Under the pieces are notes generated by a model. The model was not told where the DNA came from. It did not search any database and saw only the letters and a program-made list of their open reading frames with translations. Below, one piece after another: positions 1 to 12,864 of a stretch of DNA of 64,000 nucleotides (within the stretch, counting starts at the first letter, position 1; the number at the start of each line of letters is the position of its first letter). Source of the stretch: Alphaproteobacteria bacterium (GTDB taxonomy: Bacteria > Pseudomonadota > Alphaproteobacteria > UBA11073); NCBI GenBank assembly GCA_965246945.1, contig CBDFFW010000001.1, forward strand, positions 1,455,500-1,519,499. The letters are read 5' to 3'. A program made the position numbers and the translations under genes.

Positions 1-1
1 C

Positions 2-238
2 ACAATTGATGCAATAATCTTCATGGCTCGCTGGGGCGTTATTCACCGCCTGCACAGGCTGGTTCTGCTCATAGTTTTGCAACTGTTGTTGCTGGCGGGT
101 TAATTTCTTTTCCAATTCCAGATATGATTTCAACAAGGCATCGGTGCGGATGCTTTGGGTATTCGCATCCCAAAATTTGGTGGGTATGCCATTTTGTGTT
201 GGCGTGGTTGTTTGATCTTGGGTTAGCAAGTTATCCAT
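2..238 (-). CDS. Phage capsid assembly/scaffolding-like protein (partial, runs off the window start)
   Basis: Not in the ORF track. ATG at 238 preceded by GGAG. Translates MDNLLTQDQ...GIPTKFWDA...LLKSYLELEKKL, matching the P-x-KF...SY-x-ELEKKL motif of podovirus scaffold proteins. Lies directly downstream of the portal. Confidence 0.7.
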   Translation of the reverse strand, partial: MDNLLTQDQTTTPTQNGIPTKFWDANTQSIRTDALLKSYLELEKKLTRQQQQLQNYEQNQPVQAVNNAPASHEDYCINC

Positions 239-260
239 GATGGGCTCCATTATTGGGTGG

Positions 261-1745
261 TTAGTGGGAAATATTTTGGTGTAATAAATTTTCGGGCACG
301 CCGAAATGTTCGGCCAGATATTGTGCAGTGGCCGGAGCATCGATCATTGCTAAAGCTTCAGGGCCGAGGCCAGCGGCCATTTTCAGCCAATCCAGCACAT
401 TTTGCGCATCCCGCAATTTTTGGGCTTGGGCCAGCGGTGCCTGGTAACACAACGTGATATAACGGCCATCGATATGGATATCTGGAATTTCGCCGCGGCG
501 AGCGAGAATGGCCACCACCCGCAATATCAGCGGGGTTAATAACTCTGCCTGCAGACGGCCGTAAATAGCGCCAATCAGGCGGGACATTTCATCACTACGC
601 TGGGTGATTTCCGTTGCGGTCATATTCCGGTCAATCATTTGGCCGAGTTGGTCGACCAATAAAGCGCGGCGAATTTGCTGCCGCAAATCGGTTAACACCA
701 ATTGCGAAACATCGAATTTACCAGGCGCACCAAGCGGTGTAAGCCCAGCCGAGCCAACCGCTTTGGGGATAATCATGCCAGGTTTTAATTGAATAGTAGC
801 TGGGTTTAGTACGCCATCATCATCCGCCTGCCAAATACCGGTAACTGCAATGGAGGCATTTTTTAACACCAGCTCCACCACTTTATTGGCGGTTTTAATA
901 TCTGGCAGCGCTTTCATCACCGGTGAACGGCCATATACTTCGCCAGGGGATTTCAACCAGCGCGCATGGATAAAGGGCGAATGACTGAGCCGCTGCTGCG
1001 CCAAAAATTGTGTACCATTGGGATGATCCAGCAAAATCGCGCTATATTGAAAATAGCTGCGCTCTGGCACAATGACTTCCAGCCATTGGTATTCGTTATC
1101 CGCAGCCAAGCGGGCAAATAATTCTGCGGCTTGCGGGAAGCGCTGCTGCAAGACAATACCAGTGCTGCGCTGGGTGCGGTAAGTGGTATTTAAGCGGCCA
1201 AATGGATCTTCGGCCAAGGTAACATGCGCCAATGGCACGGCATTGAATTGCAGGGCCGATAATTGCCCAGGCTGCGCCTCATCCACCAAAATACTGCCCG
1301 TACCGGCGACCACCAAATCTAAAAAGCATTGATGAATTTCGGTGGCGAAATTGGATTGCATTAAATGCGCATGGATGCGGGCAGTGACATTGGCGAGTTT
1401 ATCGGCAATTTCACCACGTTCATTATCCGGCACATCCATCCCTGGTGCCAAGGCAAACCAGCGCGACCACGGCGGCGCAAGTTGGGCGAGCAAACTGGCA
1501 GCCAGTTGATCGACACCGTCGGCGGCTGTGGCATCATAAATATCTAAATTATTGTAGGCGGCATCAGATGCAAAAACATCGCGATGCGGCAAGGCATAAT
1601 CATAACAATCCTGCCACACCCCTTCCCAACTTTGCCGTGTGGTTTGCGCCGCAGCATAAGCTTGCAAAATTGTTTCTATTTGTGGATCAACCGTTTTACG
1701 GGCCGGCAAATTCACCACATTATTTTTGTGTTTTGTTTTAGCCAT
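261..1745 (-). CDS. Podovirus-type portal / head-to-tail connector protein
   Basis: Motifs W-x-x-CYDYALP, IYDATA, L-x-PP-x-x-RWF, SNF...DLVVAGTG, RW-x-K-x-x-GEVYGRSP and MTATEI-x-x-R typical of T7/BPP-1-like connectors. Start MAKT at 1745 (alternative 1772). Confidence 0.88.
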   Translation of the reverse strand: MAKTKHKNNVVNLPARKTVDPQIETILQAYAAAQTTRQSWEGVWQDCYDYALPHRDVFASDAAYNNLDIYDATAADGVDQLAASLLAQLAPPWSRWFALAPGMDVPDNERGEIADKLANVTARIHAHLMQSNFATEIHQCFLDLVVAGTGSILVDEAQPGQLSALQFNAVPLAHVTLAEDPFGRLNTTYRTQRSTGIVLQQRFPQAAELFARLAADNEYQWLEVIVPERSYFQYSAILLDHPNGTQFLAQQRLSHSPFIHARWLKSPGEVYGRSPVMKALPDIKTANKVVELVLKNASIAVTGIWQADDDGVLNPATIQLKPGMIIPKAVGSAGLTPLGAPGKFDVSQLVLTDLRQQIRRALLVDQLGQMIDRNMTATEITQRSDEMSRLIGAIYGRLQAELLTPLILRVVAILARRGEIPDIHIDGRYITLCYQAPLAQAQKLRDAQNVLDWLKMAAGLGPEALAMIDAPATAQYLAEHFGVPENLLHQNISH

Positions 1746-1775
1746 GATTTTTCTTCGCAGGTTATGGTGCAATGC

Positions 1776-2027
1776 TTATTCGCCGAGCAGCGATTTACGC
1801 GCAGGCACAAAATTGTTAAGATCCAATAAGCCGCGCAGTGAGGTTAAAACTGTGCTACCTAACCCCAAATTGGGATTCACTTTTTTACTTTCTTCAGGCT
1901 GGCTTTTTTCATCTGCGACCGGCGTGGGTGCTGGCGCAACAACTGGTGCGGGCGTTGGCGGTGGTTTCGGCGGCTCATTACCTGTCACCGCGTCCAAAAT
2001 CTGACCGATTGGTAAAACTTTTCCCAT
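1776..2027 (-). CDS. Small Pro-rich phage protein preceding the portal
   Basis: 83 aa, PPKPPPTPAP then STVLTS-x-x-GLL...KSLLGE. This architecture is typical of the small virion gene just upstream of podovirus portals. Confidence 0.6.
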   Translation of the reverse strand: MGKVLPIGQILDAVTGNEPPKPPPTPAPVVAPAPTPVADEKSQPEESKKVNPNLGLGSTVLTSLRGLLDLNNFVPARKSLLGE

Positions 2028-2037
2028 ATCATTTCCT

Positions 2038-2493
2038 TTAAATGTTAAACAGGCGAGTGTCTGAAGTGCTGGCCGGTTGTTGCAACCAGCGATAAAGCTG
2101 CCAAGGTGTCCAAATACGCCAGCGATGGCAGCCGATTAATCGTTTGACCGTTTCAACACAAGTCATCAGCGCCAGGGGTGCTAAATGCTGCCGTGGTATC
2201 GTTTCAGCACATTTAACTGTTAACCCTTGCAGCGCTAACCAAGCCGGCATATTGAAATCCGGCGCTGGTGGCAGAACTCGGCAATCGAGATAACCGGCTA
2301 ATGATTCCAATAACAGCCAATGCGCGCCATCATGCATGAGTGCAAAGCAATGCCGAAAACCACGGCGTAAATTTTTTAGCCACCAAATCTCAGTATGGTC
2401 GCTAAAAATAATCCAGATTTTTGGCTTCTCAGCAGTGCCATAGTCGTTGGAGGCAAGATAAAGCGGTATATTTTCAGTAGCTTTATCGCTCAT
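2038..2493 (-). CDS. Hypothetical protein, possible permuted papain-like enzyme
   Basis: Clean 151 aa ORF overlapping the upstream gene by 4 nt. His-first GFRHCF motif, then TCVETVKR...TPWQLY. Confidence 0.6.
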   Translation of the reverse strand: MSDKATENIPLYLASNDYGTAEKPKIWIIFSDHTEIWWLKNLRRGFRHCFALMHDGAHWLLLESLAGYLDCRVLPPAPDFNMPAWLALQGLTVKCAETIPRQHLAPLALMTCVETVKRLIGCHRWRIWTPWQLYRWLQQPASTSDTRLFNI

Positions 2494-2855
2494 TCCACAA
2501 TTCCTTTGCGGCGGAAATTAAATTCCAGCACATGCATGGCTTGCTGCCACAACATTTCTGCTTTTGTTTCGCGCGGGCGGCGGCCATCTGGCACATAACG
2601 CTTGCGGCCGTAATGCAATAGCACGCGCATATGTTCAATCAGCAATAAGCGTTGACGATACAGACGATCGACTAGGCGAATAATATCCAATGGTTCGCAG
2701 GGCCGCGGCACATCGGCCATACCGGCACGAATTTGTGCACCATCAAGCCGCGCTTGATACGCAGCAATAAACCAAAACCAAGCTTCTTCAGCGTTTTCAA
2801 ACGCTTTGGTATTTTCGGTTGGTGTGGGGCGTTTAAATGGAATAACACGGCTCAT
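2490..2855 (-). CDS. Hypothetical protein, first gene of the phage-like operon
   Basis: 121 aa with AAAGGA RBS upstream. Motifs AEEAWFWF, RPCEP, DRLYR and RRKGIV. Confidence 0.65.
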   Translation of the reverse strand: MSRVIPFKRPTPTENTKAFENAEEAWFWFIAAYQARLDGAQIRAGMADVPRPCEPLDIIRLVDRLYRQRLLLIEHMRVLLHYGRKRYVPDGRRPRETKAEMLWQQAMHVLEFNFRRKGIVE

Positions 2856-3035
2856 ACGCGCAATCCTTTCATGGTTTGCATGTTGAAATTACAGGGTTGT
2901 GTATAGAAAAGATGTGTTCTGAGCGAAGTTTCTCGCCGTGGTTGTGTTATGCCATAAATAATCTTAGCGGTCAACTATTATTGTACATATTTTCCTATGG
3001 ACATAAGATTACTTTCATTACAACGTATTTTGACA

Positions 3036-3683
3036 ATGTTAAGCAATTTGAATATATGGCGTGCACTTGACCGTTTGGCGGAAGCCCAAGGCCTATCGGC
3101 TTCTGGCTTGGCAAAACGCGCGGGGTTGGACCCCACCAGTTTTAATCCCAGCAAGCGGCAAACGGCTGATGGCAAACTGCGCTGGCCGACCACGGAATCT
3201 ATTTCCAAAGTATTGGATGCCACCGGTATCACTTTTGCCGATTTTGTTAGATTGGTAGATGGTACCCAGGGTAATTTGCCTGCCCAGCAACGCGCGCAAA
3301 TTGAATTGCCATTGTTGAAACTAAGTGATGCGCAAGATGCAGAATATTTCACCGCTGAAGGTGTACCGCAAGGTAACCGCTGGGATGTTTATGCTTTAAG
3401 CTGGCTGGGTGAACCGGATGTATATGCCTTGGAAATTACCGGCGAACAATATGCGCCGGTATATCATGATGGTGATATGTTGCTGGTTTCACCCCATGAA
3501 CCAGTGCGTAAAGGCGACCGTGTCGTCGTTGCACTGCCAACTGGCGGTGTTGAATTGCGCCAAGTGCACCGGCAAACCGCCGCGCGTCTGGAATTACGGC
3601 CATTGGCGAGTGACAATGTTGATCTCAATCTCGCCCGCAACGAAATCACCTGGCTGGGTCGCATTATCGGCGTAAATTACTAG
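3036..3683 (+). CDS. XRE-type HTH / S24 LexA-CI-like repressor with degenerate peptidase site
   Basis: N-terminus IWRALDRLA...GLSASGLAKRAGLDPTSFNPSKR...RWPTTESISKVL, followed by an S24-like beta domain (YALEITG...GDRVVV...WLGRII). Confidence 0.85.
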   Translation: MLSNLNIWRALDRLAEAQGLSASGLAKRAGLDPTSFNPSKRQTADGKLRWPTTESISKVLDATGITFADFVRLVDGTQGNLPAQQRAQIELPLLKLSDAQDAEYFTAEGVPQGNRWDVYALSWLGEPDVYALEITGEQYAPVYHDGDMLLVSPHEPVRKGDRVVVALPTGGVELRQVHRQTAARLELRPLASDNVDLNLARNEITWLGRIIGVNY

Positions 3684-3746: not shown

Positions 3747-4619
3747 ATGGTTCAGAAAATTGGCGTGATTGGTGCAGGGCAAATGGGCAGCGGGATTGCG
3801 CATGTGGCCGCGTTGAGTGGTTATAGTGTTTTGCTATGTGATGCAAATGCCGAGCAATTGCAAAAAGCCAAGGAAGGTATTGCTAAAAATCTCGACCGGC
3901 AAGTGGCTAAACAAGTGATTGACGCCGCTGGTAAAGATGCCGCGCTCGCCAAAATCGAAACCGTTGGTGATGCCGTGCAATTGAAAGATTGCGATTTAAT
4001 CATTGAGGCGGTGAGCGAAAACGAAGAACTTAAGCGCAAAATTTACAGCGCATTAAAAGGCCAGTTAAAGCCCGAGGCGATTATTTGCTCCAACACCTCT
4101 TCTATTTCGATTACGCGCTTGGCTGCGGCCACAGATCGCCCAGAAAAATTTATGGGCATGCATTTTATGAACCCAGTGCCGGTAATGAAATTGGTTGAAC
4201 TGATTAGCGGGATTGCCACTTCACCGCAAACCCTGCGCACGGTGCAGGAAGTTGCCGAGAAGATGGGCAAAACCACAGCGATGGCGGAAGACTTTCCAGG
4301 TTTTATCGTCAACCGAATTTTGATCCCAATGATTAATGAAGCGGCTTATGTGCTGCAAGAAGGTGTTGGGAATATCACTTCGATTGATCAGGCTATGAAG
4401 CTGGGTACCAATCAACCGATGGGCCCATTAGAGTTAGCTGATTTCATTGGTTTGGATACTTGTTTGGCAATCATGCGTGTGTTGTATGATGGGTTGTCCG
4501 ACACCAAATACCGCCCCTGCCCGCTGCTAATCAAATATGTGGAAGCCGGCTGGCTGGGCCGCAAATCCGGCAAAGGGTTTTACGATTATAGCGGCGAACA
4601 ACCAAAACCAACGCGTTAA
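3747..4619 (+). CDS. hbd: 3-hydroxybutyryl-CoA dehydrogenase
   Basis: [44 protein letters not shown]. Confidence 0.9.
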
Positions 4620-4683: not shown

Positions 4684-5859
4684 ATGGCACAAATTACCGT
4701 TCCCGCACTTGGCGAATCCGTTTCGGAAGCCACAGTTTTAAAATGGCTGAAAAAGGCCGGCGATGCGGTCAAGCGTGATGAAGCACTGGTGGAACTGGAA
4801 ACTGATAAAGTAACAGTGGAAGTGAATGCGTCAGCCGATGGTATGTTGCAAGATATTGTGGCTGCTGAAGGCGCCAATGTCGCGGTCGGCGCTTTGCTAG
4901 GTAATTTAACCGAAGGTGCGGCGGGTGCCGGTGCAGCTAAACCAATGGCAGCGCCAGCTAGCAAAGCAGCAGAACCAGTTAAAGTCGCCGCACCGGCACC
5001 AACTTCTGCACCACAGCCGGGCCCAGCTGGGCGTAAAGCTTTAGATGAAGCTGGCTTGAAAGTGGAAGATGTGGCTGGCAGTGGCAAAGATGGCCGCGTC
5101 ACCAAAGCAGATGTGACTAGTTACCAAGCGCCTACCACTTCAGCTGCTGCACCAAGCGGACCGCGTGAAGAGCGCGTGAAAATGTCGCGCCTGCGTCAAA
5201 GCATCGCCAAGCGTTTGAAAGAAGCGCAAAACACTGCGGCGATGTTGACCACCTTTAACGAGATCGACATGACCACCGCGATGGCGTTGCGCAAGCAATA
5301 TGCGGAGCGTTTTGCCGATCAGCATGGGGTGAAGCTGGGTTTTATGTCTTTTTTCGCAAAAGCAGCAGTTGCAGCTTTGAAAGAATTTCCGGCAGTAAAT
5401 GCTGAAATTCAAGGCGATGAATTGGTTTACAAAAACCATTATGATATTTCGGTGGCGGTTTCTACGCCAGCTGGTTTGGTTGTGCCAGTGGTACGCGATG
5501 CTGATTTGCTGAGTTTTGCAGGGATTGAGCAAAAAATTGTTGAACTGGGCACCAAAGGCCGTGATGGCAAAATTACCATGGAAGAAATGCAAGGCGGCAC
5601 CTTTACCATCACCAATGGTGGTATTTTCGGCTCGCTGCTGTCCACGCCCATTATCAACCCACCGCAATCGGGTATTCTAGGTCTGCACAAAATTCAGGAA
5701 CGCCCAATTGCCCTGAATGGCCAAGTGGTTATTCGCCCAATGATGTATGTAGCATTGTCTTACGACCACCGGATAGTAGATGGCCGCGAAGCCGTGTCAT
5801 TCCTAGTACGCATTAAAGAAAATATGGAAGACCCGCAACGCATGTTGCTAGATATCTAG
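4684..5859 (+). CDS. sucB: 2-oxoglutarate dehydrogenase E2 (dihydrolipoamide succinyltransferase)
   Basis: Lipoyl domain ETDKV, subunit-binding [10 protein letters not shown], catalytic [10 protein letters not shown]. Confidence 0.96.
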
Positions 5860-5865
5860 CCAAGC

Positions 5866-5894
5866 AAAAGGCGGGCCTCAAACCCGCCTTTTTT
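5866..5894. terminator. Bidirectional rho-independent terminator
   Basis: AAAAGGCGGG-cctcaaa-CCCGCCTTTTTT between convergent genes. Confidence 0.85.
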
Positions 5895-5916: not shown

Positions 5917-6453
5917 TTAACGGCGGCCGCCGCGCACCGCTTTGCGGGTATTCGTATGCTTGACGAAAACGGATTTAGCCATCACCGGCTCGTTATCTTC
6001 ACCGAATGGGTGCGGCACCCACACATCGCCAACATCACGGCGATGTGCTTCTTCGTAAGCTGCTTCACAGAAATCTTCAACCTTGGTCACGGCCATGGTC
6101 ATGCGGTTCATCAGCATTACCAATTGATTGCGGGCTGAACCTGTTTGCTGTTCCAATAATTTCTCATACATATTTTGGGCCATCACAAAACCAGCCCGCG
6201 CCTGGCGCACCAAACGATCCAACGCAGGTAAATCTGCCTGCGCATAAGAAAGCGCAGATTTTTTGGCCACACCAAACATCATTCCAGCCACTTTTTGAAA
6301 GCCAGTTAATGATAATTCAACTTTGGCGGCCTTGGTTGTCCGCGCCGCAGCCCCCGTCCGCGCCGGTGTTCGGCTGGCAGGAGTGGGTGAACGCCGGCGG
6401 GCTGTTGTAGCCTGGGCCGCGGCGTAAACATTGTCGTTGGATACGATACTCAT
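5917..6453 (-). CDS. Hypothetical protein with Arg/Ala/Thr-rich N-terminus
   Basis: 178 aa ORF ending at the shared terminator. No recognisable family. Confidence 0.55.
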   Translation of the reverse strand: MSIVSNDNVYAAAQATTARRRSPTPASRTPARTGAAARTTKAAKVELSLTGFQKVAGMMFGVAKKSALSYAQADLPALDRLVRQARAGFVMAQNMYEKLLEQQTGSARNQLVMLMNRMTMAVTKVEDFCEAAYEEAHRRDVGDVWVPHPFGEDNEPVMAKSVFVKHTNTRKAVRGGRR

Positions 6454-6608
6454 GATCTCTTGGGTTTTCCGTTATACTCAAAGATGGGTGTAATGGCAAT
6501 TACTTGCAAGGTGACCTTAGCAAATTTTCTTGACAAAGTTGTGACACAGATAGTAGTGGGCACCAAATTAACTTTTATTTATAAGAATTATACAATTATA
6601 ACAATTGT

Positions 6609-6899
6609 TTATAATGGTATTATTAGTTCAATCTCTTTGGCAGGAATAGTAACCGAAGGAGTTATATCAATATTGAGTTGGTTAAAAAGCGAAATCACAA
6701 ATTCTGCATCTCTTTTCACCATATAATTAACAAGTTCAATTCTTTTTGGCCTGCTCAAGCCGCCCGTGCCGGTTTTGAAGCCAATTAAAGTCGAATAAGC
6801 GATCCCCATGGTGGTCGCAATTTCTTTTTGGAGCGGCGTTGGATACACTACCAAAAAAACATTATAAACACTCCGCAAATCGTCACTTTCAATAATCAT
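6609..6899 (-). CDS. Small putative HTH DNA-binding protein
   Basis: LQKEIATTMGIAYSTLIGFKTG resembles an XRE/Cro helix-turn-helix. AT-rich. Confidence 0.45.
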   Translation of the reverse strand: MIIESDDLRSVYNVFLVVYPTPLQKEIATTMGIAYSTLIGFKTGTGGLSRPKRIELVNYMVKRDAEFVISLFNQLNIDITPSVTIPAKEIELIIPL

Positions 6900-6995
6900 C
6901 GCTATTTCTATTTTGATATTTATAAAACAAGCTGACCGTTAAAAACAATGCTTGCATCACTTGCCAACCGCTCAACGCTGCGGCAGTTTGGGGGC

Positions 6996-8378
6996 ATGAC
7001 TGCTTTCCGCACTGAATCCGACACCATGGGACCGGTTGAAGTACCGGCCGATAAATTATGGGGCGCACAAACCCAACGTTCGACGCAAAATTTCAAAATT
7101 GGCGGCCAGCGCATGCCGGAACCGTTGATCCGCGCACTGGGTATCCAAAAACAGGCAGCCGCAAAAGCCAATAAGGATTTAGGCGAGCTAGATGCGAAAT
7201 TGGCTGACCCCATTATTGCCGCTGCGCAGGAAATTATCGATGGCAAACTGAACGACCATTTCCCGTTGGTGGTCTGGCAAACCGGCTCCGGCACGCAAAC
7301 CAATATGAATGCCAATGAAGTGATTGCCAACCGCGCGGCGCAATTATTGGGCGGGCAGATTGGCGATAAATCGGTGCACCCGAACGATCATGTCAATCGT
7401 GGGCAATCCTCAAATGACAGCTTCCCGACTGCCATGCATATTGCCGCAGCTGAACAAGTGAACCATGCGCTCATTCCAGCGCTGCAAAAAATGCACGCCG
7501 CTTTGGCCGCAAAAGCGCAAGAATTTGCCAGCATCGTCAAAATTGGCCGCACGCATTTGCAGGATGCCGTGCCGCTCACGCTTGGCCAGGAATTTGGCGG
7601 TTATGCCAAGCAAATTGAATATGGTATTGAACGCGTCAAAGCGCCCCTGCCCCGCATATACGAATTGGCGCAGGGCGGCACAGCGGTCGGCTCCGGCTTG
7701 AACGCGGCGAAAGGCTTTGCAGAAGCGTTTGCCAAGGAAGTCGCCCGTATCACCGGCCTCCCCTTTATCACGGCGCCCAATAAGTTTGAGGCGCTGGCTG
7801 CGCATGATGCGCTGGTGGAATTATCGGGCACGCTGAATACACTCGCCGTTTCCTGTATGAAAATTGCCAATGATTTACGGATGCTGGGCTCCGGCCCGCG
7901 CTGCGGGTTTGGCGAGATTATGCTGCCGGAAAATGAACCGGGTTCTTCCATCATGCCGGGCAAGGTTAACCCTACGCAAAGCGAGGCGATGACCATGGTC
8001 TGCGCCCAAGTGATGGGCAACCATGTGGCGGTTAGCATTGCCGGCAGCAATGGCCATTTTGAGCTGAACGTATTTAAGCCAGTGATCATTTACAATGTAT
8101 TGAATAGTATTCGTCTGCTGGCCGATGCCGCCAATAGCATCACCGAAAATTGCATCGTAGGGATTGTCCCCAATTTGCCGCGCATTACCGAACATTTGAA
8201 TAACAGCCTGATGCTGGTTACTGCACTGAATCCGCATATCGGTTATGATAACGCGGCAAAAGTAGCCAAGCTAGCGCATAAAAACGGCTTAACGCTGAAA
8301 GCGGCTGCTATCGAACTCGGCTTACTAACCGCCGCGCAATTCGATGAATGGGTGCGCCCGGAATCAATGGTTACATAG
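6996..8378 (+). CDS. fumC: Class II fumarate hydratase
   Basis: [33 protein letters not shown]. Confidence 0.97.
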
Positions 8379-8380
8379 TG

Positions 8381-8394
8381 AACAAAGATTGTTT
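8381..8394 (+). promoter_or_regulatory. Palindromic upstream motif AACAA-aga-TTGTT (copy 1)
   Basis: AACAAAGATTGTTT begins 45 nt before the 8426 start. An identical copy lies 45 nt before the paralog's start. Confidence 0.5.
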
Positions 8395-8425
8395 AGGCAC
8401 CAGTCGGCTACTATAGTTATCAATC

Positions 8426-9145
8426 ATGGCGAGTCTAATTATTACAATTATCAGTATCATACTGGTAGCAATCACGGTCCTGGTTGGGGTTTATTATGGC
8501 GGCCAGGTTTATAATGATTATATGATTAACAGTAAAGCCAACACGCTGATCAATGAATTATCTCAACTTTCTACGGCTGGAAATTTATATATGGCCGATA
8601 ACGGCCAAACATTATATGAACAAGGTAATCAAGGTGTTGACCTTTCCTCTTCTTTTGATACCAACTTAACTAACTACTTTACGCAATTAAATACCATACT
8701 TGGCTATCCAATTATTAGAACAATTAACCAAGGTTGGAATCCGGGTTACAAAAACAAAAATCAATGGGCTTGTCCCAGTCCAACCATCCAATATCACCGG
8801 GGTCTTTGCACAAGCTACAATACGGCAAGTAATTATGTGATTTTTACCGCCGGTAAAATGACGGCTTGTTCAACCATGAATTACATTCCTACAGTCACAT
8901 TTGATGCAAGTGATGAAATAATTAAAATGTGTCAAAAAATCAATAAAAATGTGGTTATTCCAAATACGTTAACCATTGATCCAACTACTCAATTACCGAT
9001 AGAACCAACTAATCTTTTTACTGGTAGCATGGTCGGAAGTTATGCAAATTTTTGTCAGGGTGCAGGTTTTGCAAACATACCTTTCGCCAATGGCTGTTTT
9101 ATTAGTTATGACTTAAAACAAATTGGCATATTTTATAGTAAATAG
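8426..9145 (+). CDS. Leaderless type IV pilin-like protein, paralog 1
   Basis: N-terminal hydrophobic helix SLIITIISIILVAIT..YYGG, amphipathic helix ANTLINELSQL..LYMADNG, globular domain with 6 Cys. Confidence 0.65.
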   Translation: MASLIITIISIILVAITVLVGVYYGGQVYNDYMINSKANTLINELSQLSTAGNLYMADNGQTLYEQGNQGVDLSSSFDTNLTNYFTQLNTILGYPIIRTINQGWNPGYKNKNQWACPSPTIQYHRGLCTSYNTASNYVIFTAGKMTACSTMNYIPTVTFDASDEIIKMCQKINKNVVIPNTLTIDPTTQLPIEPTNLFTGSMVGSYANFCQGAGFANIPFANGCFISYDLKQIGIFYSK

Positions 9146-9239
9146 TTTGATTTTGATTACCTGTTCAACATCATGATAAATAGCGAAATCTAGTAGTGAA
9201 AGGTGTAACACTATCGGCATTATATCGTGGCTGAGATCT

Positions 9240-9253
9240 AACAAAGATTGTTT
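9240..9253 (+). promoter_or_regulatory. Palindromic upstream motif AACAA-aga-TTGTT (copy 2)
   Basis: Identical 14-mer to 8381-8394 at the same spacing from the GTG at 9285. The surrounding intergenic DNA is not conserved. Confidence 0.5.
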
Positions 9254-9284
9254 GAATATTAATTAATTGTTATTCTCAATAGCC

Positions 9285-10007
9285 GTGGCGAATCTAATTA
9301 TCACAATCATTGGTATTGCGTTGGTGGCTATCACAATACTGGTTGGTGCCTATTATGGCGGTCAAGCTTACAATGATTATACAATCAACACCAAAGCCAA
9401 TACGTTGATGAATGAGTTAGCTCAACTTTCAGCTGCAGCGAATTTATATATGGCAGATCATGCACAAACATTATTTGAACAAGGGCAAATCGGCACAGAT
9501 CTTTCCTCCTCTTTTGATACGAACTTGGCCAGTTATTATTCACAATTAAACACTATTTTTAATTCACCTGTTATCAGAACGCTTACTTTAGGTTGGAGCA
9601 GTGATCATCGCAATCAAAATCAATTGGCTTGTGCCAGTCCCACTATCCAGTATCACCGGGGTTTATGTACGGGTTATAATACCACACATAATTATGTCAT
9701 TTTCACTGCTGGCAAAATGACAGCTTGTACAAGTGGAAATTTGGCCGCTTCGGTTACGTTTGATGCCAGTGACGAATTGGTTAAAATGTGCCAAAAGATT
9801 AATAAAAATGTGCTAATTCCCAGTACACTAACCATTGATCCCACCACACAATTGCCGATAGAGCCAACCAATAATTTCGGCGGCGCAACCATGGCCACCA
9901 ACTATCTTCCTTTCTGCCAAGGTGCAGGCTACACGGATATCGCTTTGGCAAATGGCTGTTTAATTAGTTTCGATTTCAAACAAATCGGCATATTTTATAA
10001 TAAATAA
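9285..10007 (+). CDS. Leaderless type IV pilin-like protein, paralog 2
   Basis: Colinear with paralog 1 (SPTIQYHRGLCT, NYVIFTAGKMTAC, KMCQKINKNV, KQIGIFY). GTG start inferred from alignment. Confidence 0.65.
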   Translation: MANLIITIIGIALVAITILVGAYYGGQAYNDYTINTKANTLMNELAQLSAAANLYMADHAQTLFEQGQIGTDLSSSFDTNLASYYSQLNTIFNSPVIRTLTLGWSSDHRNQNQLACASPTIQYHRGLCTGYNTTHNYVIFTAGKMTACTSGNLAASVTFDASDELVKMCQKINKNVLIPSTLTIDPTTQLPIEPTNNFGGATMATNYLPFCQGAGYTDIALANGCLISFDFKQIGIFYNK

Positions 10008-10042
10008 ACATACGAAATTTTAATTCATATGAATGATTTCAA

Positions 10043-10216
10043 TTAGCTTTGCTGGCTTAAATCAATGCGCGGGTCTATCCACATATAGGCAAGATCGCTG
10101 ATCAGATTAAGCATCAAGCAGATGAGCGTTGGCGGGAACCCGGCGATGACTAACATTATCGCATTGCGAATACATGGCCGTAAAGCGCAGAGGTCTGCCC
10201 GACCCCTTTGGCGCGC
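10043..10216 (-). pseudogene. Degenerate copy of the yejB 3' end
   Basis: Reads RAKG...LYGHV/RNAIMLVIAGFP-(deletion)[28 protein letters not shown]. A 23 nt stretch (10047-10069) is identical to 11051-11073. Confidence 0.9.
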
Positions 10217-10301
10217 AAACCGGCAGCTCACAGGAAATATTTAATCAGCTGATTATGTAGACAATTGATCGTTCATTATATATGTTTGAAAGCAATAGTT
10301 T

Positions 10302-11009
10302 TTATTTTGTAAAAGTCATATACAATGTTTGGTTTGCTCCTACATAACCTCCTGTAGAAATGTAACAATAGTTTTGGCCAGCTCCATCGAAATATTCAAC
10401 AGCATTATTGGCAGGGCAAGTTTGTGCCGAGCCTGTTCCATAAGGTATTCCGGTCGGTGAATAAGTTAAACCAGCTGGCAGGACTGTTCGCTTATTGATT
10501 TCCAAACACATTTGAACAAGCGGATGATTAATATTTGCCACTGAACTTAAATCCAAATGGCTTAGTCCGCATGAAGTATCTTTTGGAACAACCCAATATA
10601 ATATAGAATCTTTGCCATTAATTCGACAGTTTGTCCTTGCTATAGTGACTGGATAATTATCTAGAGAAGTAACAGTTGAACTATTTTGGCATGTCTCATG
10701 ACGTTGCATTCCTGCCCCTAAAGCGCTGCCCCCATTCCCTAAAGCAGGGAAAACTAATAATGGAACTCTTCCTGAAGTATATTGTGCAATGGCTGTCATA
10801 TCAGGACCAAAATCACTGAAACTGCTTTTGCCGTTATCAACCATATAACTTAAATTAGCTGCCATTAATTGACGTGATTGTTCAATTAAAATATTGGCAC
10901 GAATTTTATTTTGATTCGCTGTAAAATTATCACTGACGTAAGAAAGACCAAAAATTACTGTTATTGCTGCTAACGCGATACCTAAAATTGTTATAATTAG
11001 ATTACTCAC
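10302..11009 (-). CDS. Leaderless type IV pilin-like protein, divergent paralog 3
   Basis: SNLIITILGIALAAITV...ANILIEQSRQL...YMVDNG and VQMCLEINK. Six Cys in the same order as paralogs 1 and 2. Confidence 0.62.
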   Translation of the reverse strand: MSNLIITILGIALAAITVIFGLSYVSDNFTANQNKIRANILIEQSRQLMAANLSYMVDNGKSSFSDFGPDMTAIAQYTSGRVPLLVFPALGNGGSALGAGMQRHETCQNSSTVTSLDNYPVTIARTNCRINGKDSILYWVVPKDTSCGLSHLDLSSVANINHPLVQMCLEINKRTVLPAGLTYSPTGIPYGTGSAQTCPANNAVEYFDGAGQNYCYISTGGYVGANQTLYMTFTK

Positions 11010-11046: not shown

Positions 11047-12141
11047 TTAACTTTGCTGGCTTAAATCAATGCGGGGGTCGACCCACATATAGGCGAGATC
11101 GCTGATTAAGTTGAGTAGCAGGCCAATCAAAGTAAACACATAAAGCGCACCAAAGACCACCGGGTAATCCCGGTTCATCGCGCTTTCAAAACCAAGTAAG
11201 CCAAGACCGTCAAGCGAGAAAATCACTTCGATCAGCAGTGCGCCGGTAAATAACATGCCGATCAAGGCTTGCGGGAAACCGGCAATCACCAGCAGCATCG
11301 CATTGCGAAACACATGGCCATATAACACCCGCTGTTCCCCCGCGCCTTTGGCACGTGCGGTCAGCACATATTGTTTGCCCAGCTCGTCCAGAAAACTGTT
11401 TTTGGTCAGCATGGTAAGCGAGGCGAAACCGCCCAGTACCATCGCCAGCACCGGCAACGCCATATGCCATAAATAATCGGCGATACGCGCGGGCCAGCTA
11501 AGCTCGTGCCAGTTGTCAGATACCAAACCGCGTAATGGAAACCAGCTGACAAATTCACCGCCTGCGAATAACACAATCAGTAACACGGCGAGCAAAAAAC
11601 TCGGGATGGCATGGAAAACGATGATTATAAAGCTACTCCAGATATCAAACGCCTCGCCATGGCCGATGGCTTTGCGGATACCTAAGGGAATGGAGACAAG
11701 ATAAACAATTAGCGTGGTCCATACGCCGAGTGAAATCGAGACCGGCAGTTTTTCGCCAATCAATCGCGCCACGCTAACCGAACGGAAATAACTTTTGCCC
11801 AAATCGAACCGCAAATATTGGCCGAGCATTTTAAGATACCGTTCCAGCGGTGGTTTATCGAAGCCAAAATCCTTTTCAATTTCTTTGATAATTTCGGGAT
11901 CAAGCCCTTGGGCGCCGCGATAACTGGCACTTTCGCCAATGCCAGGCTGAGCTTGTAAATCTTGCCCGCGTGAATTACCGCTGGCACGCTCAGTCGCATC
12001 GCCGCCATGATTTTGCAGTTTGGCGATCATTTGTTCGACTGGACCGCCAGGTGCCATTTGGATAATTACAAAATTTAATGTTAGGATACCCAGCAATGTG
12101 GGAATAATCAGCAATAACCGGCGGCAAATATAAGCGAACAT
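11047..12141 (-). CDS. yejB: Peptide ABC transporter permease, YejB type
   Basis: [48 protein letters not shown]. Confidence 0.92.
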
Positions 12142-12186
12142 CAAACCGGTTTATAAAATATTTTTACCAATCTGTCGCGCCCAAAT

Positions 12187-12864
12187 CTAGCGCAAGCGAA
12201 AGGCAAACAGCAGATTATTTAAGCTTGCTTTGGTGCAAGAATAAAGGCCCGCGCTATTGGCCACCATTTTATTCAACGGTACATACCCCGCGCCGGCAGT
12301 ATTAATATCGTTCGCCGCAAAAATAATTTTAGTATAGTCATTATTCACCTGCACCCGAATAATGCCATATTTGGTAACCAAAATATCGGTGCTGGCCATG
12401 GCGGTAATAAGATCTACGCAGCGGCTATAATCCAAATTGGTTACATAAAAGCCGTAATATGGCCCGCCAATCCCACGATCAAAAGTATTATTGGCAAAAG
12501 TTAGTGGGCGAATGGTGCTGTAAAGACCGGTGCTGACCAGGCCGTAAGGTGAAATAATGTCGGCAGTGCCATTTAGTTTTAATTCGGAGGGCACGACATC
12601 GCCCGCGGCAATTGCTTTATCTGTTCGATCATTCACATCACTGGTTTTGAAAATAGCGTTGCCTTCATTAAACTGGCTTAAATAATCTTTAAATTGCTGG
12701 CTGAATTTTTGAATAGCAAAAACCGTTTCCGTGGTACGCGCTTGGGCGGTCATTTTGCGTGCGCCGATTAAGACAGCGGCTATTAAACCAGCCACAACAA
12801 CCAATACTAGGCTTAACTCAATCAGCGTAAATCCGCGTTTTTGATGATTGCTGGCTGATAACAT
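12187..12864 (-). CDS. Type IV prepilin / pseudopilin
   Basis: Class III signal peptide QKRG^FTLIELSLVLVVVAG with E5. C-terminal Cys pair (RCVDL...YSCT), PilS-like. Confidence 0.85.
   Translation of the reverse strand: MLSASNHQKRGFTLIELSLVLVVVAGLIAAVLIGARKMTAQARTTETVFAIQKFSQQFKDYLSQFNEGNAIFKTSDVNDRTDKAIAAGDVVPSELKLNGTADIISPYGLVSTGLYSTIRPLTFANNTFDRGIGGPYYGFYVTNLDYSRCVDLITAMASTDILVTKYGIIRVQVNNDYTKIIFAANDINTAGAGYVPLNKMVANSAGLYSCTKASLNNLLFAFRLR

Follow-up and report, generated by a model that had tools for sequence, protein, structure and literature searches.

The window, a stretch of 64,000 nucleotides of alphaproteobacterial DNA, opens on one part of what we interpret, with moderate confidence, as a domesticated podovirus-type particle system that is inherited by its host, forms a regulon of four loci and likely serves as a gene transfer agent (GTA). 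Hundreds of related species inherit this T7-like particle kit as their own genes. Since the kit is scattered and yet inherited as host genes, it probably represents an undescribed kind of GTA. What the sequences show directly is which genes are present, that they are dispersed yet conserved and under purifying selection, and that promoter and operator motifs are common to the loci.

Head genes and repressor of locus A

The first-pass annotation had described a minus-strand operon facing an HTH-S24 repressor across about 180 bp, with hbd as the next gene, intact reading frames throughout and a flank free of integrase, att site, replication gene and composition break; open reading frames (ORFs) and domain matches bore out this layout. 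The operon of locus A begins with p121 (121 amino acids [aa]; minus strand, 2490 to 2855), whose gene overlaps by 4 nt that of p151 (151 aa; minus strand, 2038 to 2493), and continues with p83, a small Pro-rich protein of 83 aa (minus strand, 1776 to 2027), with the portal or head-to-tail connector of the T7 gp8 type (minus strand, 261 to 1772) and with a scaffold-like (capsid assembly) gene. The 5' part of the latter, about 83 codons, lies at 1 to 250 on the minus strand; traced past the window edge, the gene continues to the left and spans G000:C1:1455033-1455749, its end lying 95 bp from tyrS in the DNA preceding the window. Head to head with the operon, across a divergent control region (2856 to 3035), stands the gene for a repressor with a helix-turn-helix (HTH) and an S24 fold (plus strand, 3036 to 3683; long ORF from 2997), directly followed by hbd (3747 to 4619). 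The locus is thus flanked by tyrS/rnhB on one side and hbd/sucB on the other. All of its ORFs are open, and its GC content is 0.487, versus 0.478 for the genome. The locus and its flanks yielded no integrase, no replication gene, no att repeat and no break in GC, the 40 kb to the left no tRNA, and the two borders no direct repeat of at least 9 nt in common. The head module is real, but it does not stand alone as had been proposed: it is one of four dispersed loci and only part of the system, the remaining particle genes sitting at three further genomic sites.

In profile searches the portal matched PF12236 (E 1.1e-122) and phrog_332 (E 1.4e-93). It is present in a single copy, its true start is likely the ATG at 1745, and in an alignment of 16 sequences it retains every invariant column. 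It lies 5 to 8 points further from outgroups than the portal of G002, a genome of the same family, whereas fumC and tyrS are equidistant, and its terminal branch in the portal tree measures 1.09 where the median is 0.24; by these sequence distances, the portal evolves faster here than in G002. The scaffold-like protein is named from its position since it has no Pfam or PHROG match; its gene occupies the place of the "capsid assembly protein" of phage MEP301, and the protein is 46 to 49% identical to the product of the gene after the portal in G002 and 39 to 41% in G005.

The small genes of the operon were compared by sequence and by predicted structure. The p83 protein matched phrog_831, a family of unknown function (E 3.9e-5), and a protein of G001 (44% over 43 aa), and G388, G317 and G110 have ORFs of 47 to 81 aa immediately upstream of their portal genes. 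At 71 of 80 related loci we found p151, with the invariant motifs R-H-C and C..K-R and with H48, C49 and C112 invariant. It has no Pfam match, but the top three structural matches of its predicted model (pLDDT 84) were TseH (Z 6.5), YiiX (Z 6.1) and the cysteine peptidase 3kw0 (Z 5.6), the next reaching only Z 3.8; the atlas lead was Peptidase_C92 (0.78), while Foldseek gave E values above 1. The model thus suggests that p151 is probably a permuted NlpC/P60 cysteine hydrolase of the YiiX/TseH type, that is, a cell-wall hydrolase. The p121 protein, found at 66 of the 80 loci, likewise has no Pfam match; its invariant columns are W..W, RPC and H, and its model consists of four helices (pLDDT 88). 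The best structural match was Q21 (Z 6.2; 87 residues aligned, rmsd 3.4), followed by AlpA (Z 5.4) and many sigma region-4 domains (Z 4 to 5), all of these values being under the safe level for helical proteins; the atlas lead was DUF1133/Phage_antitermQ (0.79). We consider p121 a candidate RNA-polymerase-binding regulator, either a Q/AlpA-type antiterminator or a sigma region-4-like protein.

The repressor matched PF00717 (E 3.4e-12; residues 133 to 224 of the long ORF) and phrog_4. Counted from the ATG at 3036, the start common to relatives, which leaves a divergent region of 180 bp, it has 215 aa (the family model has 209 positions), with an N-terminal HTH, a C-terminal S24-like domain and a RogA-like size. 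Its N-terminal half retains the invariant residues of the family, but the Ala-Gly cleavage site, the Ser and the Lys are replaced (AQDA, GEQYAP and LRQV, respectively), while 58 of 64 relatives' repressors keep the Ser-Lys dyad. As judged from these residues, the protein is non-cleavable, and with site and dyad absent a self-cleaving S24 repressor of the LexA or lambda CI type was rejected. It is also distinct from the host LexA, which is encoded at C1:112190-112756. From its architecture, its size and a candidate operator motif we regard the repressor as a probable member of the RogA family. The first-pass annotation was right in naming RogA (CCNA_00080) as an HTH-S24 repressor of the Caulobacter GTA: Gozzi 2022 (PMC9632790) describes it as an HTH plus S24-like protein without catalytic residues that silences this GTA and reports that 819 of 1,331 alphaproteobacteria, including Rhodospirillales, have homologues. 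The repressor family is widespread in the class; its profile matched 115 of 401 genomes (one being the unpublished G043, on which no claim depends), among them 26 of the 68 genomes carrying the marker of RcGTA, the GTA of Rhodobacter capsulatus. Where the genome had no strong portal match, 18 of the 20 loci examined had the repressor gene standing alone (41 to 66% identity).

Remote loci and candidate operators

Three remote loci encode the rest of the particle. Locus B (contig 2, C2:14624-24316) encodes the capsid (PF19821, E 5.7e-81), p89, tail tube A (PF17212/phrog_394) and tail tube B (phrog_376, E 3.5e-146); it adjoins Mur ligase and histidine kinase genes, contains cold-shock protein and DEAD helicase genes, and has host genes separating tube A from tube B. 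Locus C (C1:1540950-1543854), next to dnaX-ybaB, encodes p162, p108 and a fibre/spike (PF12708), and locus D (C1:1223233-1225559), adjoining genes for an MFS transporter and for a protein with a TsaD-family match (PF00814), encodes a wall hydrolase (PF07486), p95 and the large terminase, TerL (phrog_38, E 3.9e-85). All 16 genes of the four loci are open, and they are spread over two contigs and separated by as much as 231 kb. The host chromosome thus carries genes for head, tail, packaging and lysis, the gene content of the GTA class, and the flanks of the four loci contained no replication, integration or excision genes, one weak recombinase-like ORF aside. This ORF, at a distance of 1.65 kb from locus C, resembles a tyrosine recombinase but does not reach the Pfam cut-offs. 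A Bbp19-like gene, found at 64 of the 80 related loci, was not found in this genome. An HK97-like GTA of the RcGTA type was rejected, since the portal matches PF12236, the capsid matches PF19821, and the RcGTA tail gene DUF2460 (PF09343) has no match in this genome.

The control region of locus A holds a -35-like box, TTGACC (minus strand, 2969 to 2974), adjoined by a RogA-like operator half-palindrome, TAGGAAAATATGTA (minus strand, 2984 to 2997). The consensus TAGGAA.atattC.TA...cTTGAC was common to 66 aligned control regions, and GGAA-N4-TTCC (at most one mismatch) occurred at a fixed place in 48 of them, compared to a mean of 5.5 and a maximum of 10 in shuffles. An SOS-type GAAC-N7-GAAC box, present in 35 of the 66 relatives, is degenerate in this genome. 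The arrangement TTGAC[AC]-N0-8-GGAA-N4-TTC occurs only twice in the 1.98-Mb genome, before the capsid gene and before p162; at the capsid gene it forms a sigma-70-type promoter matching at 11 of 12 positions, followed by a leader hairpin and a T-run. The same GGAAAATATTCT box was found at Azospirillum capsid genes that stand apart from the scaffold gene, and the genome motif search revealed no operator-bearing promoter for locus D. Among RNA runs, none was found to contain locus A. We infer that the GGAA-N4-TTC sites are putative operators at which the repressor would bind at loci A, B and C. With its fast portal, missing Bbp19-like gene, non-cleavable repressor and degenerate SOS box, the copy in this genome looks less constrained than those of relatives.

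Inheritance, proposed function and alternatives

The claim of the first-pass annotation that a host-controlled particle system descends from a T7-type portal lineage was supported by the PF12236 portal, by a vertical tree and by purifying selection. The repressor-p121-p151-portal order, on to the scaffold gene, was kept at 69 of 80 public related loci (Azospirillum, Magnetospirillum, Micavibrio and others), and in Azospirillum the synteny extends to the site itself, the locus having the same flanks in 11 of 11 genomes; patchy presence among close relatives was not seen. The portal tree tracks genus labels with 10 changes for 11 genus groups, the minimum, and portal identity to other families (50 to 58%) is on par with that of tyrS (55 to 61%). 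In gene pairs from relatives, among which there is no close relative of this genome, dN/dS ranged from 0.01 to 0.73, below 1 in 94 of 94 values. Internal stops were present in 13 of about 650 ORFs, the one inspected being a match that overran the true stop near the gene end; broken genes include the portal of G317, with two TAG stops, and TerL of G187, in two pieces. At class level the distribution is patchy, a portal match with E of at most 1e-60 being found in 68 of 401 genomes. In G002 all kit genes form one cluster of about 18.5 kb, and the compact clusters of G388, G110 and G109, which abut lysK, pyrD, groEL and lnt, contained no integrase or replication gene. Of the 37 genomes having both the portal and TerL on one contig, 10 had them separated by over 15 kb. 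By these sequence comparisons, the kit is vertically inherited and under purifying selection.

We propose that locus A would act as the control and head initiation locus. The probable RogA-family repressor would sit on the GGAA-N4-TTC operators of loci A, B and C and keep their promoters off. In most relatives, DNA damage would lift repression through RecA-stimulated self-cleavage of the repressor, and LexA would also be released from the GAAC-N7-GAAC box over the -10 region. Because self-cleavage and the SOS box, and thus both DNA-damage inputs, appear lost in this genome, some other signal would have to induce the system, as for Caulobacter RogA. Upon induction, p121 may help RNA polymerase pass leader terminators, portal and scaffold would seed heads that the terminase fills with DNA, and the hydrolases would open the wall to release short-tailed particles. 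Since it lacks replication, integration and excision genes, the kit could not propagate itself, and being also scattered, it would form particles that can carry and transfer only host DNA, that is, a GTA. Self-transfer may be possible in one-piece genomes: should the head be T=7, as in T7, a single particle would have room for a compact cluster of 14 kb.

Part of the evidence would also suit a role outside gene transfer, for which the host would have domesticated the genes as a particle or lysis system, for instance damage-triggered altruistic lysis with DNA release or short-tailed particles killing competitors, with the terminase retained only for head maturation. The two wall hydrolases (the candidate p151 and the PF07486 protein), the SOS-type wiring of most relatives, a repressor/antiterminator layout resembling the AlpR-AlpA self-lysis switch of Pseudomonas, and the lack of the large internal virion proteins that MEP301-type relatives use for DNA ejection all point in this direction. 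However, portal, scaffold, capsid and TerL are under purifying selection and kept together even when scattered, although lysis alone needs none of them, and a headless variant with an intact tail was absent among the loci mapped; we thus regard such a role as unlikely. It seems more improbable still that an old prophage was split up by rearrangements in this genome and that the four loci are its decaying remains, which have ceased to cooperate. The accelerated portal evolution seen only in this genome, the loss of the Bbp19-like gene, of the repressor's catalytic residues and of the SOS box, and the host genes between tube A and tube B are what decay would produce, but all 16 genes are open, the portal retains every invariant column and the repressor its DNA-binding half, two remote loci keep a promoter-operator arrangement present nowhere else in the genome, and in 10 of 37 genomes the genes are likewise dispersed but intact.

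An active temperate podovirus relying on host replication and integration functions is impossible in this genome, because the genes are split over two contigs and lie up to 231 kb apart, and overall we give this reading very little credence. Hundreds of relatives are listed as viral contigs in IMG/VR, a 5-kb "Bacteriophage sp." record shows 50% portal identity, and a compact cluster of 13 to 18 kb could fit a T7-size head. Nevertheless, 79 of the 80 best IMG/VR relatives are contigs of at most 26 kb that begin at the repressor side, the Azospirillum site is fixed, the tree follows genus labels, copies are single and no att repeats were found.

If the GTA reading is extended to the whole class, a podovirus-derived GTA could already have existed in an early alphaproteobacterium and survived in Rhodospirillales-grade lineages and Micavibrio, with its repressor ancestral to RogA; the Caulobacterales/Rhizobiales/Rhodobacterales clade would have lost the kit, domesticated an unrelated HK97-type phage (RcGTA) and rewired the old repressor to new activators. 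We offer this scenario tentatively and hold it to be rather doubtful; if true, one switch would have governed two successive, unrelated GTAs.

Comparison with phages and known transfer agents

Literature searches yielded no description of this domesticated T7-like particle kit. The nearest cultured phages share 30 to 36% portal identity. Marine podoviruses of the HTVC010P/MEP301 type (Pelagibacter phage EXVC031P, Methylophilales phage MEP301) share with the kit the order of portal, small genes, scaffold, capsid, a protein of about 88 aa, tube A, tube B and fibres but, unlike the kit, carry recombination and SSB genes and encode the terminase ahead of the portal. In MEP301 four extra genes (160 to 586 aa, one annotated as internal virion protein) separate tube B from the fibres, whereas the kit has a single gene of about 160 to 180 aa there and the terminase after the fibre. 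An integrated temperate podovirus was rejected as well: compared with MEP301, the particle genes of this genome do not form a contiguous phage genome, and neither integrase nor att sites nor replication/recombination genes were found with them.

In the AlpR-AlpA system of Pseudomonas aeruginosa and in lambdoid Q systems, a self-cleaving S24 repressor stands beside a small antiterminator, and the lysis or late operon is opened through a promoter-proximal terminator. The kit resembles them in that p121 best matches Q21 and AlpA and that a leader terminator follows the capsid promoter, but the likeness of p121 is weak (Z 6.2 and 5.4) and without sequence match.

Like the kit, RcGTA, as presented by Shakya 2017 (PMC5721377), is alphaproteobacterial, vertically inherited, encoded by several structural loci and devoid of replication and integration genes. 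Its viral ancestor is, however, unrelated to that of the kit, whose range, unlike that of RcGTA, comprises Rhodospirillales-grade lineages and Micavibrio, and the RcGTA marker PF09343 and the kit portal occur together in only 2 of 401 genomes. FpGTA of Faecalibacterium prausnitzii is similar by its description as a GTA-like, inferred podovirus-like element in two loci, but its host is a Firmicute (Nat Commun 2026, PMC12946183).

The GTA of Caulobacter crescentus (CcGTA) under RogA/GafYZ control (Gozzi 2022, PMC9632790; compare Nat Commun 2024, PMC11150451) resembles the kit in its chromosomal, phage-derived particle genes with auxiliary loci elsewhere, and antitermination takes part in its activation. 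Its repressor RogA, with an HTH and an S24 fold in about 213 aa, binds GGAA-N4-TTCC and is described as non-cleavable (PMC9632790), as is the repressor here, while most kit relatives differ in retaining an active S24 dyad. No likeness of p121 or p151 to GafY or GafZ was detected. The CcGTA particle is siphovirus-like, of the HK97/RcGTA type, whereas the kit encodes a T7-type portal, tubes A and B and terminase, and RogA controls gafYZ at a distance, whereas the repressor here stands head to head with the particle operon.

Locus A and the remaining kit genes

At the left edge of the window, a minus-strand operon composed of p121, p151, p83, a portal gene and a scaffold-like gene faces a plus-strand gene coding for an HTH and a Peptidase_S24 domain (window 1-3683), the whole being referred to as locus A. 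The first operon gene, p121 (2490-2855), overlaps p151 (2038-2493) by 4 nt; next come the proline-rich p83 (1776-2027), the portal (261-1772; PF12236, E 1.1e-122; phrog_332) and the scaffold-like gene, of which only the start lies in the window (from about 250 down to the edge). The facing gene, hereafter the repressor (3036-3683), matched PF00717 (E 3.4e-12) and phrog_4, "transcriptional repressor". To its right lie hbd and then sucB. On the other side, in the 40 kb preceding the window, the end of the scaffold gene is separated by 95 bp from tyrS, beyond which we found only housekeeping genes (rnhB, the ATP synthase operon with its b and b' subunits, motB and others) and no tRNA. A search for repeats of at least 9 nt common to both borders of locus A was negative, and its GC content (0.487) is close to that of the genome (0.478). 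These data confirmed the module described in the first-pass annotation, namely, an operon facing a repressor next to hbd, with neither a border repeat nor a GC break. Further to the right, the sucB-fumC interval contains two minus-strand ORFs of 178 and 96 aa (window 5917-6899) without Pfam or PHROG match, and the GC content dips to 0.37 at 6500-7000; it drops again to 0.35-0.41 at 8250-11000, where ORF 8426-9145 has a pilin-like hydrophobic N-terminus.

The head module had also been taken to stand alone, which was not borne out, since the rest of the kit, i.e., of a set of T7-like (podovirus-type) particle genes, was found elsewhere in the genome. The assembly (1.98 Mb, two contigs, C1 and C2, the window corresponding to C1:1455500-1519499) was searched with Pfam, and every ORF of a relative's cluster was compared with it, revealing loci B, C and D. 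Locus B (C2:14624-24316) encodes the one capsid protein detected genome-wide by Pfam (PF19821), p89 (phrog_18004), tail tube A (PF17212, phrog_394) and tail tube B (phrog_376, E 3.5e-146). Tube A and tube B are separated by host genes, which include those for a cold-shock protein, a DEAD helicase, an HAD hydrolase and a GNAT acetyltransferase. Locus C (C1:1540950-1543854) comprises p162, p108 (phrog_29007) and a 674-aa fibre/spike protein (PF12708), and locus D (C1:1223233-1225559) comprises a wall hydrolase (PF07486), p95 and the large terminase, TerL (phrog_38, E 3.9e-85). Reading frames are open throughout loci B, C and D, the GC content across the loci is 0.46 to 0.49, and loci B to D adjoin housekeeping genes, among them dnaX-ybaB, genes for a Mur ligase, a histidine kinase and an MFS transporter, and a gene with a TsaD-family (PF00814) match. 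Neither Pfam nor PHROGs gave a match for p121, p151, the scaffold, p162 or p95; p83, p89 and p108 matched only PHROGs of unknown function and nothing in Pfam.

Several features were observed next to these loci, outside the window. A 416-aa ORF located 1.65 kb from locus C (C1:1545507-1546757; 11507-12757 of the extracted locus L026) is weakly tyrosine-recombinase-like (Phage_int_SAM_3, E 6.8e-5; Phage_integrase, E 9e-4, below the cut-off); it is followed by several small ORFs and may be part of another small mobile element. Directly upstream of locus D lies a gene for an EncFtn-like protein (encapsulated ferritin, PF22277; C1:1222562-1222876, i.e., 5562-5876 of the extracted locus L027), followed by a stretch (C1:1222877-1223232) in which an apparent partial tRNA gene was seen by eye on the opposite strand, and directly downstream of TerL is a 391-aa ORF without family match.

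Distribution and inheritance of the kit

In G002, a genome of the same family, the entire kit is gathered in a single cluster, about 18.5 kb long, flanked on one side by lysS-side genes and on the other by a cation antiporter. It reads repressor, then divergently p134, p167, portal, a Bbp19-like gene (PF25181), scaffold, five inserted genes, capsid, p90, tube A, tube B, p172, fibre, p101, TerL, p110, hydrolase and p177. In a balanced class-wide sample of 401 genomes, 68 harbor a portal match passing the E 1e-60 threshold, which is single in 66, and 56 a matching TerL. A scan of one genome per species gave at least 572 species-level genomes with relatives, of which the 80 best include Azospirillum (18), Micavibrio-labelled bins (8), Magnetospirillum (5), Tagaea, Defluviicoccus, Terasakiella, Caenispirillum and unnamed Rhodospirillales, among others. 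When these 80 were mapped by tblastn, 69 displayed the order repressor(-)-p121-p151-portal, and in 7 of the 11 deviating loci the contig breaks off about 1 kb or less from the portal. The compact clusters of three further genomes (G388, G110 and G109) adjoin lysK, pyrD, groEL and lnt, and no integrase or replication gene was found at them. In G388 (L054) and G110 (L069), which belong to two different families, pyrD (dihydroorotate dehydrogenase) adjoins the terminase end, hinting at an old shared insertion site. Reduced or broken loci were also encountered. In G071 (L193:2384-5500) the repressor faces p121, p151, p110 and a wall hydrolase, and a portal is missing from the nearest 5 kb, so that only regulators and lysis genes remain at the switch. 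Two TAG codons interrupt the G317 portal in frame (L058:5019-6548), and in G187 the large terminase (C20:27560-28949) is split in two, possibly reflecting decay or, for G317, recoding.

Synteny, phylogeny and dN/dS, named in the first-pass annotation as checks, came out in favor of vertical descent. The portal tree (81 rows, 11 genus labels) requires 10 label changes, the minimum possible; the 18 Azospirillum portals form a single clade (support 99), and this genome pairs with the probable G002 record (support 95). All 11 Azospirillum loci compared have corresponding genes on both flanks (91-100% identity upstream, 68-100% downstream), their kit genes being 52-100% identical. Between this genome and other families, the portal (50-58% identity) is on par with tyrS (55-61%). 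All 94 gene-pair values of dN/dS (Nei-Gojobori, 12 genome pairs) were below 1, ranging from 0.01 to 0.73, and in Azospirillum the repressor was the most constrained gene (0.01-0.05). Of about 650 extracted ORFs, 13 had internal stops, and the single case inspected was a match that overran the true stop near the gene end.

The kit is also dispersed to various extents in other genomes. The capsid gene follows the scaffold by 150 to 900 bp in many loci and by 1.3 to 6.4 kb in others, lies upstream of the portal in two and is absent from the surrounding 10 kb in many loci of Azospirillum. Portal and TerL share a contig in 37 genomes, in 10 of which they are more than 15 kb apart, with a maximum of 1.49 Mb. 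Packaging requires a phage genome to be contiguous, and kit genes that are scattered yet intact therefore argue for ownership by the host. Caution is warranted for the genome under study: its portal is 5 to 8 points more distant from three outgroups than that of G002, while fumC and tyrS are equidistant, its terminal branch in the portal tree measures 1.09 (median, 0.24), the Bbp19-like gene was not found when its ORFs were compared with the relative's cluster, locus D lacks a recognizable operator, and a weakly recombinase-like ORF lies near locus C.

The repressor and its promoter signature

We considered whether the repressor is LexA, which was ruled out: a canonical LexA is encoded elsewhere (C1:112190-112756), and the genome encodes a third S24 protein besides these two. 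The S24 serine and lysine are both kept in 58 of the 64 members of the repressor family. In this genome they are replaced by Gln and Arg, and the Ala-Gly site is lost too; the same catalytic residues are lost in five other lineages. The N-terminal half retains the invariant residues of the family. RogA, the repressor of the Caulobacter gene transfer agent (GTA), is described as a 213-aa protein with an HTH and an S24-like domain without catalytic residues, which binds GGAA-N4-TTCC and represses gafYZ, and homologues are given for 819 of 1,331 alphaproteobacteria, Rhodospirillales among them (Gozzi 2022, PMC9632790). Our family profile matched 115 of the 401 class genomes (including the unpublished G043, on which none of our conclusions depends), nearly always as a single full-length gene, and these include 26 of the 68 genomes with PF09343, the marker of the HK97-type RcGTA. 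At 20 repressor loci of genomes without a strong portal match, the gene was alone in 18 and faced p121-p151 in 2; the 18 stand-alone genes are 41 to 66% identical to element-linked members. The repressor probably belongs to the RogA family.

Alignment of 66 divergent regions gave the consensus TAGGAA.atattC.TA...cTTGAC, about 17 nt, aGaACATAA.g.gAACA. A RogA-type operator with at most one mismatch occurs in 48 of them (shuffles: mean, 5.5; maximum, 10), only 2 being exact, and GAAC-N7-GAAC, which we take to be the alphaproteobacterial SOS-box form, i.e., a LexA box, is found exactly in 35, over the likely -10. The divergent region of this genome retains TAGGAAAATATGTA beside TTGACC, and its SOS box is degenerate. 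Searching both strands of the 1.98-Mb genome for TTGAC[AC]-N0-8-GGAA-N4-TTC gave two occurrences, of which one precedes the capsid gene (C2:24466) and the other p162 (C1:1543945). About one match is expected by chance, and the number itself is unremarkable; the apparent signal is the placement of both copies, in the right orientation, in short upstream regions of two kit loci. The capsid-gene copy forms an 11-of-12 sigma-70-type promoter whose spacer contains the operator, and it is followed by a leader hairpin and T-run. Likewise, nine Azospirillum genomes whose capsid gene lies 3.5 kb from the scaffold carry GGAAAATATTCT beside TTGACA upstream of it, again followed by a strong hairpin and T-run. 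An operator with at most one mismatch precedes the capsid gene in 15 of 23 loci where it is separated or rearranged and in 11 of 15 with a 700- to 1,313-bp gap, compared to 1 of 16 tight junctions. The motif search in this genome recognized no shared promoter or operator at locus D or tube B. This genome could serve as a natural experiment, with a predicted four-locus regulon, the operator kept at remote promoters and a repressor apparently unable to cleave itself.

The two genes facing the repressor were modelled. The p151 model (pLDDT 84) matched TseH (Z 6.5), YiiX (Z 6.1) and a Bacillus cysteine peptidase (Z 5.6), all permuted NlpC/P60 hydrolases, the next match being at Z 3.8; with His48, Cys49 and Cys112 invariant, p151 is probably a wall hydrolase. 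The p121 model (pLDDT 88) consists of four helices and matched Q21 (Z 6.2), AlpA (Z 5.4) and, after these, numerous sigma region-4 domains. None of the scores reaches the level regarded as safe for helical proteins, but the matches share a consistent theme that would fit the leader terminators. Profile searches against solved structures gave nothing usable, and Foldseek against the PDB no match at E 0.001 or better, for either protein. We rejected p121 and p151 as counterparts of GafY and GafZ, as p121 had no DnaA domain IV match and p151 has a hydrolase-like fold.

Relation to phages and to known gene transfer agents

The best cultured portal matches in the phage collection were Pelagibacter phage EXVC031P (35.9%) and Methylophilales phage MEP301 (32.6%); a 50% match came from one unannotated 5-kb record. 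MEP301 has the same structural gene order as the kit but possesses recombination, SSB and RusA genes beyond the structural set, and between tube B and fibre it carries four extra genes of 160 to 586 aa (one annotated as internal virion protein), where the kit has one gene of about 160 to 180 aa. IMG/VR contains at least 539 relatives; 79 of the 80 best are contigs of 26 kb or less, with the portal typically 0.2 to 3.4 kb from one end, indicating that databases list these elements as cluster-size proviruses.

Overall, the genomic data identify a T7-type particle system that has been domesticated and is placed under a RogA-like switch, here apparently split into a four-locus regulon, and support the earlier proposal of a host-controlled particle with a T7-type portal. 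Its predicted function is most likely that of a GTA, of a kind not yet in print. Carriers include the genetically tractable Azospirillum brasilense and Magnetospirillum, which opens the GTA idea to bench testing at once. If confirmed, a vertically inherited kit present in at least 572 species-level genomes would represent an independent viral origin of GTAs for Rhodospirillales-grade lineages.

Only a handful of GTAs are well studied, the alphaproteobacterial ones being of the RcGTA or Bartonella type. The kit portal and the RcGTA marker tend to occur in different genomes: both are present in 2 of 401 genomes versus about 11.5 expected if independent. This is only a tendency, given that related genomes are not independent samples and that true phages can carry PF09343 too. 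Our search of the literature found no published description of this kit. For Rhodospirillales and Micavibrio, the relevant passages of Shakya 2017 (PMC5721377) report small RcGTA-like clusters only and no large ones. The portions consulted of the Azospirillum genome paper (PMC3899980) mention nothing beyond siphovirus-like particles, which contain about 10 kb of DNA, and an orphan core "phage-related lysozyme". The firmicute FpGTA is presented by its authors as the first podovirus-like GTA (PMC12946183). Kinship with RogA, if real, would tie the repressor of the kit to the only well-dissected GTA switch and raises the question of which particle came under RogA control first.
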